A DNA stretch of 64,000 bases from Eledone cirrhosa (Eukaryota), in assembly GCA_964016885.1 (NCBI GenBank), contig OZ024755.1, forward strand, positions 36,766,001 to 36,830,000, read 5' to 3'. Of this stretch, positions 21,304 to 57,550 are shown piece after piece. Position numbers and translations under genes: made by a program. The notes under the pieces were generated by a model, which was not told the DNA's origin, ran no database searches, and was given only the letters and a program-made list of their open reading frames with translations. How positions within the stretch are numbered: the stretch's first letter is position 1; each line of letters begins with the position of its first letter.

Positions 21304-21722
21304 TGTAGGAGGTGAGTTTTATTGTAGTACAATAAAGCAATGCAGATATCGGATAAGAAGCACTCTACAGTTTGTAGGACTGGAGTATACATAATATATA
21401 AGATCAAAAGATGGTTAAAGGAGTTCCGTGTATTTTATTATGCGCATTTCAAAAACAAACATCATCATGCAATAATATTTGTGTTTTCATCAGATAAAAC
21501 ACAAATATTATTGCATGATGATGAAAACACAAATATTGCATGATGATGAAACACAAATATTATTGCATGATGATGAAAACACAAATATTATTGCATGATG
21601 ATGAAAACACAAATATTATTGCATGATGATGTTTGTTATTATTGCATGATGATGTTTGTTTTTGAAATGCGCATAATAAAATACACGGAACTCCTTTAAC
21701 CATCTTTTGATCTTATATATTA
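21304..21722. mobile_element. Inverted-pair HHR element in (TA)n; HHR at 21433-21499 (-)
   Basis: Reverse complement: TTTTAT CTGATGA AAACACAAATATTATT GC ATGATGATGTTTGTTTTT GAAA TGCGCA TA ATAAAA. The right arm is an inverted copy. Family members at 42341, 49483/49642 and 63723. Confidence 0.8.
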
Positions 21723-21770
21723 TATATATATATATATATATATATATATATATATATATATATATATATA

Positions 21771-22200
21771 CAATATTAAATAAATGGAAACTATATTTAT
21801 AAAACCATATTTATTTCATTATATATATTTCGGGGATATCATATTAACAATATGCTATGCCTTCCTCAGACAAAATACAATATAAACAGTTTTATAGATA
21901 AATAGATTCGACATACCGTAATAACACCGACTTGCATTTGCAGAGGTTAGTCGGTGTTATTACGGTATGTCGAATCTATTTATCTATAAAACTGTTTATA
22001 TTGTATTTTGTCTGAGGAAGGCATAGCATATTGTTAATATGATATCCCCGAAATATATATAATGAAATAAATATGGTTTTATAAATATAGTTTCCATTTA
22101 TTTAATATTGTAAATATACTCCAAATATTTGTCGAGTGCTTTTATATCAGTTGTAAATATTTACTAGTTGTAACCCAACAATTTTAAATATAACTTTCCA
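21771..22200. mobile_element. Inverted-pair HHR element in (TA)n; HHR at 22006-22067 (+) mirrored on minus
   Basis: Arms of about 165 bp around a centre near 21940. TTTTGT CTGAGGA..GAAA TATAT ATA ATGAAA. Sister at 45789-46180. Confidence 0.8.
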
Positions 22201-23291
22201 TATATATATATATATATATATATATATATATATATATATATATATATATATATATATATATATATATATATATATATAATTGTATATATATATATATATA
22301 TATATATATATAATTGTATATATATATATATATATATATATATATATATATATATATATATATATATATACCTGTTAGTTCTTTCGTTACTTTGGTATTG
22401 TGTGTTAGATTTTGCCTACCACAATGTTCAATTTGTCAAGCTATTTAAACGTATGTTATTATTCTGAGGACCTACCCTTGTCGAGTGCTTTGCTAACTCA
22501 TTCATATCGTAGGTCGACTTTGCTTGCACACCGCCAAAGATTCGATTTTACTAAGCCTCCAATTATATATATATATATATATATATATATATATATATAT
22601 ATGTGTGTGTGTGTATGTGTGTGTGTGTGTGTGTGTATGTGTGTGTGTGTGTGTGTGTGTGTGTGTGTGTGTGTGTGTGTGTGTGTGTGTGTGTGTGTAT
22701 GCGCGTGTGTGTGCGTGTGTTTATATATATATATATATATGTGTGTGTGTGTGTATATATATATATATATATATATGCACAAATGGAAGGTTTGTAAAAT
22801 CGAAGTTATATATATATATATATATATATATATATATATAGGAACATTTTAAACCCCGACGGCAGAGCTCAAGCCGTTTTGACGGCTATTTCTGGACTCT
22901 GCCGTCTGGGTTAAACATTTTCCTATTATCCACTCTACTACCCTACGTATTGAGTACTCTGGTGCGTTATGGTACATCTGGTTCCTTACCTTACTTTTTT
23001 CGTTATATATATATATATATATATATACATATATATATATATTTATATATATATATATATATAGAATAAGTAAAAGCGAAGTAGTTTCAGATGTTCAAGT
23101 CCTTTAATAATAATGCTGTGATATATATTTCAATGACGACACACTTCGCTTTTACTTATTCGATATTTACTCCGTTACTCCTATTTGGAAAAAGTACGTT
23201 GAGTGCTTGAATTGAATTGCATCAATGTTTACCCTAATATATATATATATATATATATATATATATATATATATATATATATATATATATA

Positions 23292-23464
23292 CAGGGTGGG
23301 CCAGAATCCATGAGTCGCTTGTTAGTTATGTTTCTTAACATGCTTATTTTATTGTTATTGTATTGTTTTAATTTATTATTTTATTTCTTAATATGCCTCA
23401 CAGGTATTTTATTTATAAATAATCAATAAATAATCAAGTGAGTCATGAATTCTGGCCCACCCTG
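23292..23464. mobile_element. Tc1/mariner-type MITE
   Basis: About 30-bp TIRs cagggtgggccagaatccatgagtcgcttg / caagtgagtcatgaattctggcccaccctg with TA on both flanks. Confidence 0.85.
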
Positions 23465-23630
23465 TACATATATACACACACACACTCTCTCTATTACACA
23501 GACACACACACATATATATATATATAATAGTAATAGGTATAGTACAAGGAAAAAACAGGAATGACTAGGCAAGGAATAGTTAGAAGGAGAAAATATATTT
23601 ACAGTTCCTTAACATATGTTCCTTAACACA

Positions 23631-24247
23631 TAGTGGCTGGCAACTCGTTTTCGAGTACGGCCACCACTATATATCCATGTAGGAGAACCCCTACCGATGC
23701 GGCGAACGAGTGTGACTTTTTAGTCCAGCCAGCGGCTTGAAAACTCTGGTACAAAACTACACTTGTGACAATTATTGACACATAGTGCTGGGCCCATGGT
23801 ACCATGTGACGGCAAGTGTAGAGAGATCTCCAGATATAAAGCAATGCCTGTGCCGTGAAGCTTTTATAGTGAGCAAAGGCACTGCACAAAGCCAGTCCCA
23901 CTCTCTTAACCAAGATGATATTTACCAAAAAGAAGAACAAGTCAACATCATTGGATACCATCAGGGTTGTAGGTGTTATATCAGAGTTTTCCTTCTCCTA
24001 GAATTCTGCCTTGACAAAGGCTAAGGGGTCATCTCTCCCGGTGATTTTGGATGGCCATTGACTCTTAAGAGCTCATTTGTCCTTTTGCCCTTTGACAGGT
24101 TTTGTTTTTAGTCCTGCAGGATGTCCAAAGTCGCCCTCCTCACCAAGAAACCTTGGTGGGGTTGCCAGTTTAGTCGCCAACGACCAGACCATGGGACAGG
24201 TTGTACTGGGATACATGTTACCAGTAGCACCAACTGGTGACCTGACA
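23631..24247 (-). mobile_element. ~600 bp non-autonomous retroelement (copy of 1528/55070)
   Basis: Reverse complement of 55070-55685. Confidence 0.8.
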
Positions 24248-54717: not shown

Positions 54718-55069
54718 GATAAATGATTTAAACAGAACTTTGTTTCAGGTAATATCTCTCTCTCTCTCTCTCTCTCTCTCTCTCTCTCTCTCTCTCTCTC
54801 TCTCTCTCTCTCTCTCTCTCTCTCTCTCTCTCTATATATATATATATATATATATATATATATATATATATATATACATACATACATATATATATATATA
54901 TATATATATATACATACATATATTTATATATTTACATACACACACACACACACACACACATATATATATATATATATATATATATATAAATACACATACA
55001 TATGTATGTATATATGTATGTATGTATGTATGTATGTATGTATGTATGTATGTATGTATGTATGTATTG

Positions 55070-55685
55070 TGTCAGGTCACCAGTTGGTGCTAGTGGTAAC
55101 ATGTATCCAAGTACAACCTGTCTCATGGTCGGGTCGTTGGCGACTAAACTGGCAACCCCACCAAGGTTTCTTGGTGAGGAGGGTGACTTTGGACATCCTG
55201 CAGGACTAAAAACAAAACCTGTCAAAGGGAAAAGGAGCTCTTAAGAGTCAATGGCCATCCAAAATCACCGGGAGAGATGACCCCTTAGCCTTTGTCAAGG
55301 CAGAATTCTAGGAGAAGGAAAACTCTGATATAACACCTGCAACCCTGTTGGTATCCAATGATGTTGACTTGTTCTTCTTTTTGGTAAATATCATCTTGGT
55401 TAAGAGAGTGGGACTGGCTTTGTGCAGTGCCTTTCTTTGCTCACTATAAAAGCTTCACAGCACAGGCATTGCTTTATATCTGGAGATCTCTCTCTGCACT
55501 TGTCGTCACATGGTACCATGGGCCCAGCACTGTGTGTCAATAATTGTCACAAGTGTAGTGTTTGTACCAGAGTTTTCAAGTCGCTGGCTGGACTAAAAAG
55601 TCACACTCGTTCAGCGCATTGGTAGGGGTTCTCCTACATGGATATAAAGTAGTGGCCGTATTCGAAAACGAGTTGGCAGCCACCA
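55070..55685 (+). mobile_element. ~600 bp non-autonomous retroelement, apparently full copy
   Basis: Lies between (TATG)n and (TA)n. Carries the C2H2 remnant [22 protein letters not shown]. Confidence 0.8.
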
Positions 55686-56732
55686 TATATATATATATAT
55701 ATATATATATATATATATATATATATATATATATATATATATATATATATATATATATATATATATTTATATATATATATATATATATATATATACAAAT
55801 ATATATAGATATAATTATATGTGTGTATATGTGTGTATGTGTGTGTGTGTGTGTGTGTGTGTGTGTGTGTGTGTGTGAAAATGGAAAGAAAAAGAACGAG
55901 AGTACTAAAAAGAGATAGTAAGGAAGAGTCAGAGAATTTCTGATGGAATATTTACAGTGAAAATAAGAAAACATTAGAAATAGTAATTTGGTGAAAATAT
56001 GTGATGGTGAGAGTTATTTTCCGTGGCGATAAAAGAAATTGTTTTCTGTGTCTCCATAGGTTCATTAAAATATTTCAGTTTCCTGCAATAACTAATTATA
56101 AATTTATAATACATTGTTATGTTTTCTTTTCGCACACGAATCGATATCAAGGGCAAATGTGAAAAATACAGTGTGGTCTATCAAAACATCGTTCTCATAA
56201 TTGACCGCTTCTGCGTGAACCATAAATTTTAGCAAGTGTTGGAGCATTAAGGAATTGATGTACATGAGGATTTTTCAGCATCTAATACAAGCACATACTT
56301 CTCAATTCACAACTTGTCACATCCGCTTTCCCTTTCACCTGAGTAGACTCTAGATAGATAATTATAAATGAATCTATGAAGTCAATCGATTTGACTGTTA
56401 CCAGTTGAAATAATATTTTTTGGTCGATTTACCAATACAATGATATACAACAGTTCCTGTAAGAAGGGTTCGTTAACGCAATCGTTCGAATTACTAGCAA
56501 TAGCAGTTATGTCTTCAATATATTACACCCTGGCTAGTTTTATCGAAAGGAAAAACGACATATTAAAAAAAGCCTGCAAATAATTTCTGAGTAGCTTTCT
56601 TCCACTGATAATGCAATGAGGAAGAAATCAGTGGAAAATAGAATAGATATTTCACAGTGTATAAATAAATTGCAAATAGTACCACTGGATCATGAACTTA
56701 ATTTCTTATATATATATATATATATATATATA

Positions 56733-57025
56733 TAATGTAAAATAAACAATACAATATAATTATCTCATTACTAGAGGTTTCCCGAATAAGACGAATACAA
56801 AAAACGTCCTCATTCGTTCATCGGACAAGGCAATTTCCTTGTAAATTGCCTTGTCCGATGAACGAATGAGGACGTTTTTTGTATTCGTCTTATTCGGGAA
56901 ACCTCTGGTAATGAGGTAATTATATTGTATTGTTTATTATACATTAAATTTAGCTCTGGTACTTACATAGAGCACTCTTCACTCCTATGACTTTTTTAAT
57001 TTTCAACGGAAACTTCAATACTTAA
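56733..57025. mobile_element. Inverted-pair HHR element; HHR at 56844-56921 (+) mirrored on minus
   Basis: AATTGCCTTGT CCGATGA ACGAATGAGGACG..CGTCTTATTCGG GAAA CC TCT GG TA ATGAGGTAATT. Confidence 0.85.
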
Positions 57026-57067
57026 TATATATATATATATACAATATGTTGAAAAGGTAACACACTA

Positions 57068-57550
57068 GAGAGAGAGATAGTGCGTCATCAGTCAAACAGG
57101 GAAAAACCACCAGTGTATGGAATCTATAACCCATGGAAGGCAGAGTAGACACACAATAATTAAAATTATAAATTAAAGTGTAAATACATACCTCGATAAC
57201 TATCTAACACACACGTACAAATCCAAAGAGATCTGTTTCGCCAAATAAGTTGTTGACAGAAATGATTAGCCCATGGTTCATCAGCGTATGTAAGGCTGTG
57301 TAGAGTTGTCTGAAATGTATAGCCTTACACACGCTGATGAACCATGGTCTAATCATTTCTGTCAACACATTATTTGGTGAAACAGATCTTTTTGGATTTG
57401 TACGTGTGTGTTAGATAGTTATCGAGGTATGTATTTACACTTTAATTTATACTTTTAATTATCGTGTGTCTACTCTGCCTTCCATGGGTTATAGATTCCA
57501 TGCACTGGTGGTTTTTCCCTGTTTGACTGATGACGCACTATCTCTCTCTC
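57068..57550. mobile_element. Largest inverted-pair HHR element (~230-bp arms); HHR at 57327-57409 (+) mirrored on minus
   Basis: ACACACG CTGATGA ACCA..TGGT GAAA CAGATC TTTTTG GATTTG TA CGTGTGT, with a full stem III. Confidence 0.85.

Follow-up and report, generated by a model that had tools for sequence, protein, structure and literature searches.

Probable twin priming of Penelope-like elements as the origin of hammerhead palindromes in the Eledone cirrhosa genome

The stretch of the Eledone cirrhosa genome analysed here, positions 36,766,001 to 36,830,000 of the forward strand of contig OZ024755.1 (assembly GCA_964016885.1; 64,000 nucleotides, hereafter the window, in whose own numbering positions are given), contains many short palindromes that carry hammerhead ribozymes in one polarity. 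This raises the question of which event lays down two copies of a ribozyme-bearing segment head to head, in a TA-rich host genome of 3.0 Gb. The palindromes are insertions of Penelope-like elements (PLEs), and we propose that they are probably short head-to-head insertions made by many PLE families through twin priming, with two fixed start sites and with the far ends of the two complementary DNAs (cDNAs) joined. The further claim, that PLE enzymes routinely initiate both cDNAs on a single capped, uncut transcript, at whichever copy of their initiation signal is nearest its 5' end, and run off its cap, seems to us evenly balanced.

A self-BLAST of the window recovered all 13 inverted repeats described in the initial annotation, with arms of 34 to about 240 nt and identities of 73-100%, and the head-to-head polarity assigned to them was confirmed, the repeat at 44371 being oriented separately through family F. 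In total the window holds 17 inverted repeats, and the 15 that can be oriented are all head-to-head; the units at 22838, 26187, 39017, 42038, 43494, 62402 and 63137 had previously been overlooked. A descriptor of the type I hammerhead gave 13 matches in the window (mean of 10 shuffles, 0.0) and 49 in 40 genome tiles, against 1 in shuffles. It directly matches 5 of the 13 palindromes; the remaining cores were read by eye, including the variants CCGAAGA and CCGATGA and the U3-A8 variant TTGATAA. Among the 150 of 163 Rfam matches listed there was microsatellite noise only and no hammerhead. A ribozyme in both arms, as originally described, is present in 9 of the 13 (one of the cores, at 46414, is damaged); the palindromes at 21304, 38540 and 45136 have a single core, and at 44371 both arms carry the back half of the ribozyme only. 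The extension of one arm beyond the other is general, all 13 units combining one long and one short outer end, and the right arm of the 57068 palindrome continues across a (TC)n expansion to about 57697. In 9 of the 13 units both true ends adjoin (TA)n (at least 14 of 16 bases), and a target-site duplication would be masked by the (TA)n within which the ends sit. The hallmark of endonuclease-positive (EN+) PLEs, an inverted 5'-truncated copy at the 5' end together with a one-sided tail, is found here. The 13 palindromes are real insertions of PLEs, an origin already suggested for them, in a layout that has been published.

The connection with a coding element is provided by the family of the 37783 unit (family D), which at the sampled locus L172 runs on into an intact open reading frame (ORF) of 712 aa on the ribozyme-sense strand, so that in this family ribozyme polarity is transcript polarity. 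The ribozyme core lies 175 nt upstream of the ATG, the type I hammerhead pseudo-long terminal repeat (pLTR) overlaps the ORF start on the same strand, and stem I co-varies among subfamilies (AGATTC/GAATCT, AGCTTC/GAAGCT). This single ORF combines reverse transcriptase (RT) motifs, read by eye as DIENYY and YRDD, with a C-terminal GIY-YIG domain; the Pfam match to GIY-YIG is weak (E 0.041, under the cut-off), and Pfam gave no RVT_1 match in it. The Hydra clade is defined by RWK-like and DKT motifs, a CxCx5C linker, no CCHH, CxxC and CxH near the C-terminus and a (TA)n target; RWR, DKT, CNCLNKEAC, CDLC and CMH were read by eye in the family D ORF. By these motifs the intact PLE to which the 37783 family belongs as pLTR is Hydra-clade-like. 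Young intact copies of such an element, 95-99% identical, occur at L172 (minus strand), L171, L154 and L160, with a long TG/TA microsatellite stretch between the 3' untranslated region of the ORF and the next pLTR. An apparent shared 3' end about 1.08 kb into the ORF was rejected as an artefact of a truncated reference copy. Among the other families, I sits behind the end of a PLE ORF similar to that of D, and C adjoins one; the assignment of A, B, E, F, G, H, J and L to PLEs is based solely on their ribozyme, the structure of their ends and their target. In family K, which is non-coding and made of tandem ribozyme units, partial tandems were seen and no tandem copy with two complete cores was confirmed. 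A PDB search gave nothing significant.

Polarity across the genome was assessed in 120 tiles of 10 kb, in which 208 inverted repeats were found. Where a ribozyme lies inside an arm, 9 repeats are head-to-head and 1 is tail-to-tail. Orientation by family seeds, from which eight doubtful clusters had been excluded beforehand, yielded 53 head-to-head repeats (55 before two one-arm calls resembling short interspersed elements (SINEs) were dropped), 5 tail-to-tail, 2 ambiguous and 146 without orientation; family F, outside the seeds, gave 34 head-to-head and 0 opposite. A TA run separates the arms in all 5 exceptions, of which 2 are segmental fold-backs that include flanking DNA, 2 are neighbouring separate insertions and 1 is a weak one-arm call. 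The single polarity without opposite case that had been noticed holds in the window and becomes 53 against 5 in the tiles. By itself it is nothing new, since head-to-head is reported as the most frequently observed arrangement in PLEs (PMC3846280), and polarity and one-sided tail have both been published (PMC3846280, PMC8557442). Long repeats at L043 and L067, without seed assignment, turned out to be head-to-head inversions of PLE ORFs. At L039:4319-6502 and L068:251-908 there are (TA)n-centred segmental inverted duplications extending into flanking DNA (in L039 over 2.2 kb, at 95%); they may be real fold-back repair or assembly artefacts.

What distinguishes the arms is the position of their outer ends. 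Counted from the predicted cut, these cluster at +14 to +21 and +91 to +93 in family D, lie at +37 and +102 in family I, and at about +174 and about +260 in family K. One end of each kind is found per unit: 61 family D pairs comprise 40 long-short, 1 short-short, 0 long-long and 20 with a non-standard end, and 17 family I pairs comprise 12 long-short and 5 with a non-standard end. Because some D loci had been chosen for having a long arm, short-short pairs could not occur among these, whereas long-long pairs could; in family F, whose loci were not selected on F, 31 of 34 pairs are long-short and 3 short-short (p 4e-7 against a coin toss). At the opposite side of the arms, in the 52 long/short pairs of D and I, the arm that extends more than 8 nt beyond its partner in the 5' direction is the short one in 18 and the long one in 7, with 27 ties (K was left out of this count, its 4 'long-long' pairs being tandem-unit wrap-around in the reference). 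The short-end arm likewise reaches further 5' than the tailed arm in the units at 38441, 42038 and 43494, and arm pairs without any shared sequence exist (window 43494-43860 and L212). In the 18 pairs each arm has sequence absent from the other, so a single cDNA folding back on itself fails and two copying events are needed. Fold-back of one cDNA, which the initial annotation had offered as an alternative, cannot serve as the general route in view of these pairs and of the arms without shared sequence, whereas its other suggestion, priming from both target strands, is supported; priming simply on the 3' region of the RNA has to be replaced by two fixed internal sites, which in D and F apparently lie near a capped 5' end.

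Under the mechanism that we propose, the enzyme of the element would cut both strands of the (TA)n target. The sense RNA would offer two fixed internal start sites, with one cut end acting as primer for reverse transcription at each, and the resulting cDNAs would be linked through their far ends. In families D and F the template would be the 5' end of a capped, uncut transcript whose start lies at or inside the ribozyme; with both cDNAs running off at that start, the fold would come to sit there. Work on a purified enzyme fits two copying events: the PAc protein of a Poseidon element extends both strands in vitro from two internal start sites that bound the tail, and uses uncut RNA (PMC11167929). 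In the available text of that study the two sites are not linked to one-per-arm pairing or to cap run-off, and no start-site difference between strands is reported. Twin priming by LINE-1 (PMC2912911) also involves two target ends priming on one RNA and cDNAs joined by microhomology; there, however, the annealing site of the second primer varies and the arms have little overlap, whereas here the sites are fixed and the arms usually overlap.

A motif, (A/T)GAG(C/T)(A/G)C, was found 19-26 nt beyond the short end in the tails of 5 of 13 families, at 49752-49840, 37982-38057, 44281-44352, 51297-51361 and 56948-57025, against 0.22 expected from shuffles, a post hoc test because the motif had been chosen by eye beforehand. 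Near matches occur in families B and H. It is a candidate for a shared binding or initiation signal.

Both cDNAs may have been copied from one RNA, the downstream-primed one displacing the upstream-primed one or stalling behind it, although this part of the proposal is weaker. The arms of a unit differ from each other less than from other loci (2.8% against 7.6% in D, 3.4% against 6.6% in I, 4.3% against 6.7% in K) and several long arms stop near the short-end site, both of which favour one RNA. Two RNAs, one per subunit of an asymmetric dimer and each primed at its own site, would agree with the predicted dimer of PAc (PMC11167929) and would produce fully overlapping arms without strand displacement. 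Such an arrangement is unlikely in view of the similarity between arms, and of the short arm reaching further 5' more often and the long arms stopping near the short-end site, as expected from one RNA.

Evidence for twin priming on a capped, uncut RNA comes from the inner ends. In family D these stop at -45, at an initiator-like A. The TATA box TATAAATA lies exactly 30 nt upstream of this A, and CCAAT is at -84 relative to the boundary. Exact counts in the whole genome at this boundary gave 6091 templated read-throughs, 1236 copies that add a G and 305 that add A or T, so that the non-templated next base is G in 1236 of 1541; the sequence beyond the extra base differs from locus to locus. The read-through count is strand-skewed (1641 against 4450), probably due to a tandem array. 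Departures number 167 at the cut site of the ribozyme and 156 one base earlier, which puts the -45 boundary at about ten times background and leaves the cut site without excess. Run-off at the cut site, hinted at by the window unit at 38540 and by L254, was rejected for D on these counts. Raw reads from three other DNA samples, possibly of a related population or species and informative at the level of families, not of individual window loci, show (TA)n at the same two 3' ends of D and strand-switch joints at its inner ends (9 of 15 among the joints listed); depth across the boundary falls roughly 3-fold, from about 1940, 2050 and 2270 to 700, 640 and 800. Family F has a comparable layout, with a TATA-like box at -29/-31, CCAAT at -87 to -92 (6 copies) and the initiator T(T/C)AGTC. 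Of its 83 copies 44 reach the initiator A, 5 of them reading through; the base before it is G in 15, T (the usual templated base) in 16, C in 5 and A in 3, and in the 15 copies with G the template has T or C there. An untemplated 5' G is the accepted mark of cap copying in L1 at full run-off (PMC9341517), a feature shared with the D and F ends, and the extra G at the D boundary is likely such a cap mark. The G excess, the pile-up at the initiator and the cut site without excess together favour twin priming on capped, uncut sense RNA over antisense self-priming.

The start site predicted for family F falls within the ribozyme region, and no copy, read-through copies included, showed the front half of the core. 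At L172:5475-5553, reads and contigs show joints that step back by 76-78 nt, and one genome count is strand-skewed; a minimal ribozyme unit of about 77 nt is probably repeated in tandem here.

Several observations weigh against copying up to a cap and against the pairing on which twin priming is based. Ribozyme stem I can anneal a cDNA end to the other arm and thereby add the same base: among 21 extra-base D loci that were read, 6 fit stem I microhomology, 1 is a mutated read-through, several more fit a fold-back of 1-3 nt (5 nt in L279), and about 10, by our own reading, fit neither. Part of the 15 family F cases with G could also derive from the other arm. The D boundary resembles a splice acceptor, and in Drosophila virilis a PLE intron ends at Helix I; on the splice reading, no constant upstream exon appears at the D boundary. 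Alignments of diverged subfamilies break off at this boundary too, and this inflates both the tile-based clustering and the drop in read depth. Family K has dispersed 5' ends, family I has no TATA box, and a start site is predicted for families D and F. The D and I loci were chosen through similarity searches, 146 of the 208 tile repeats lack an assigned orientation, and the similarity between arms could result from gene conversion or from a dominant source copy.

Self-priming or fold-back, whether an antisense template (PMC3846280) or the first cDNA is involved, would account for the many junctions that are near-perfect folds with 0-6 nt of overlap, and short additions of the expected kind do occur (L279). 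It is nevertheless very unlikely, for the arms have mutually exclusive sequence in 18 of 52 pairs and in the window units at 38441, 42038 and 43494, and an excess of G is found on the sense 5' end at a predicted sense start site. The spread of whole palindromes as ready-made units, similar to miniature inverted-repeat transposable elements (MITEs) or to hairpin retroposons, is suggested by high copy number, stereotyped size and a few loci duplicated with their flanks (L195/L197, L276/L277, L280/L281); it is highly improbable, since DNA transposons of the MITE or terminal-inverted-repeat type have a constant internal junction and equal termini, whereas here junctions vary by locus, ends are unequal and they map onto the PLE ORF and pLTR. 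An assembly or chimeric-read artefact can be dismissed almost entirely: although the palindromes at 56.6-57.8 kb in the window are spanned by no contig (which makes the contig check uninformative) and the (TA)n-centred segmental fold-backs of L039 and L068 exist and may be artefacts, the asymmetric family-specific ends, non-overlapping arms, arm mismatches and strand-switch joints in the raw reads of three other samples all stand against it.

Twin priming, in the form preferred here, can be set beside what is known of PLE insertions. EN+ PLEs (PMC3846280, PMC8557442) show the same head-to-head polarity, the tail at one end, the pLTR over the ORF start, (TA)n targeting and a pLTR with TATA and initiator. 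Unlike them, the units described here often have both arms of only 60-250 nt, and tails of 65-170 nt compared with 30-40; unlike the proposals made for them, our evidence favours a capped sense template over antisense self-priming. The minimal hammerheads of metazoan PLEs (PMC4209133) are likewise of type I with palindromic Helix III and U3-A8 variants, and occur as opposite-strand pairs 100-700 bp apart; self-cleaved or circular templates were proposed for them, whereas no excess of family D ends is seen at the cut site. Family K, a non-coding tandem ribozyme unit with PLE-type ends, resembles the non-LTR retrozymes (bioRxiv 10.64898/2026.07.22.740005), from which most window families differ in being truncated pLTRs and not tandem arrays. 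PMC8557442, PMC3846280 and PMC11167929 present the way in which PLEs form their inverted repeats and one-sided tails as an open question. Thousands of natural insertions now suggest three testable rules: each arm has its own start site, the template is sense RNA and probably capped, and ribozyme cutting is not required. These rules separate twin priming from the published proposals of antisense self-priming and cleaved circles. What is added here is evidence from genome sequence, in two families, that twin priming uses capped, uncut sense RNA as its template; no cap or twin-priming case for PLEs appeared among the papers listed by literature searches, which cover neither subscription journals nor supplements. 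If PLE enzymes do routinely run both cDNAs off one cap, many of the minimal hammerheads dispersed in animal genomes would be 5'-end stubs rather than 3'-end truncations, and the fold of a palindrome would give the PLE transcription start at base resolution, with the genome sequence as the only data needed.

The individual units of the window illustrate this variety. Family A is represented at 21304..21720 (head-to-head, long end left and short end right, one core at 21493 on the minus strand), at 42038..42446, where the arms do not overlap and the tail end is on the minus and the ribozyme arm on the plus strand, and at 49440..49840 (short end left; cores 49543, minus, and 49648, plus). The junction of the first, at 21460-21654, holds part of ribozyme stem II in several short copies, some tandem and some inverted, which suggests repeated template slips while joining. 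Family B occurs at 21769..22198 (short end left, long right; cores 21869, minus, and 22012, plus) and 45790..46179 (long end left; cores 45975, minus, and 46080, plus). Family C occurs at 25346..25843, with the long end left and the variant core CCGAAGA at 25766, and at 43494..43860, with non-overlapping arms, the ribozyme arm on the minus and the tail on the plus strand. The family D unit at 37783..38163, from the pLTR of the Hydra-clade-like PLE, has ends at +93 and +200 from the predicted cut, encodes the N-terminus of the ORF in its tail and folds at the predicted transcription start; two more, at 62402..62560 and, with a spacer, at 63137..63576, are additions to the initial annotation, as are the family L unit at 26187..26357, the family F unit at 22838..23003, of the half-ribozyme family, and the family F5 unit at 38955..39732 (U3-A8 core 39125, minus). 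The other family F unit, at 44281..44483, has its long end left, folds at the predicted initiator and lacks the front half of the ribozyme. In the family E unit at 38441..38852 the tail is on the left arm while the right arm has extra 5' sequence and the sole core (38701), a layout incompatible with simple fold-back. The remaining units belong to families G (45135..45706; short end left, single U3-A8 core at 45388), H (46227..46630; long end left, a SINE-like repeat adjoining the short end), I (51138..51361; ends +37 and +102, the family sitting behind a PLE ORF 3' end in other copies), J (56735..57025; short end left, variant core CCGATGA at 56855) and K (57041..57697; a non-coding, retrozyme-like tandem repeat of about 540 nt with ends at +175 and +261 and an internal (TC)n expansion).

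A degraded PLE ORF fragment at 53790..54753 (minus strand) gives a weak GIY-YIG match, shows no similarity to the family D ORF and has an inverted piece of family C pLTR at its 5' side. Two more PLE families, seen at window positions 43155 and 57774 and at L043 and L067, carry a AAGATGGCG motif, which we take to be YY1-like, about 45-60 nt before the ribozyme core. An assembly gap of 200 N occupies 37305-37504. Inverted repeats free of ribozyme are located at 14348-14753 and 23282-23474; the latter has terminal repeats bordered by TA and presumably resembles a MITE of the Tc1/mariner type.

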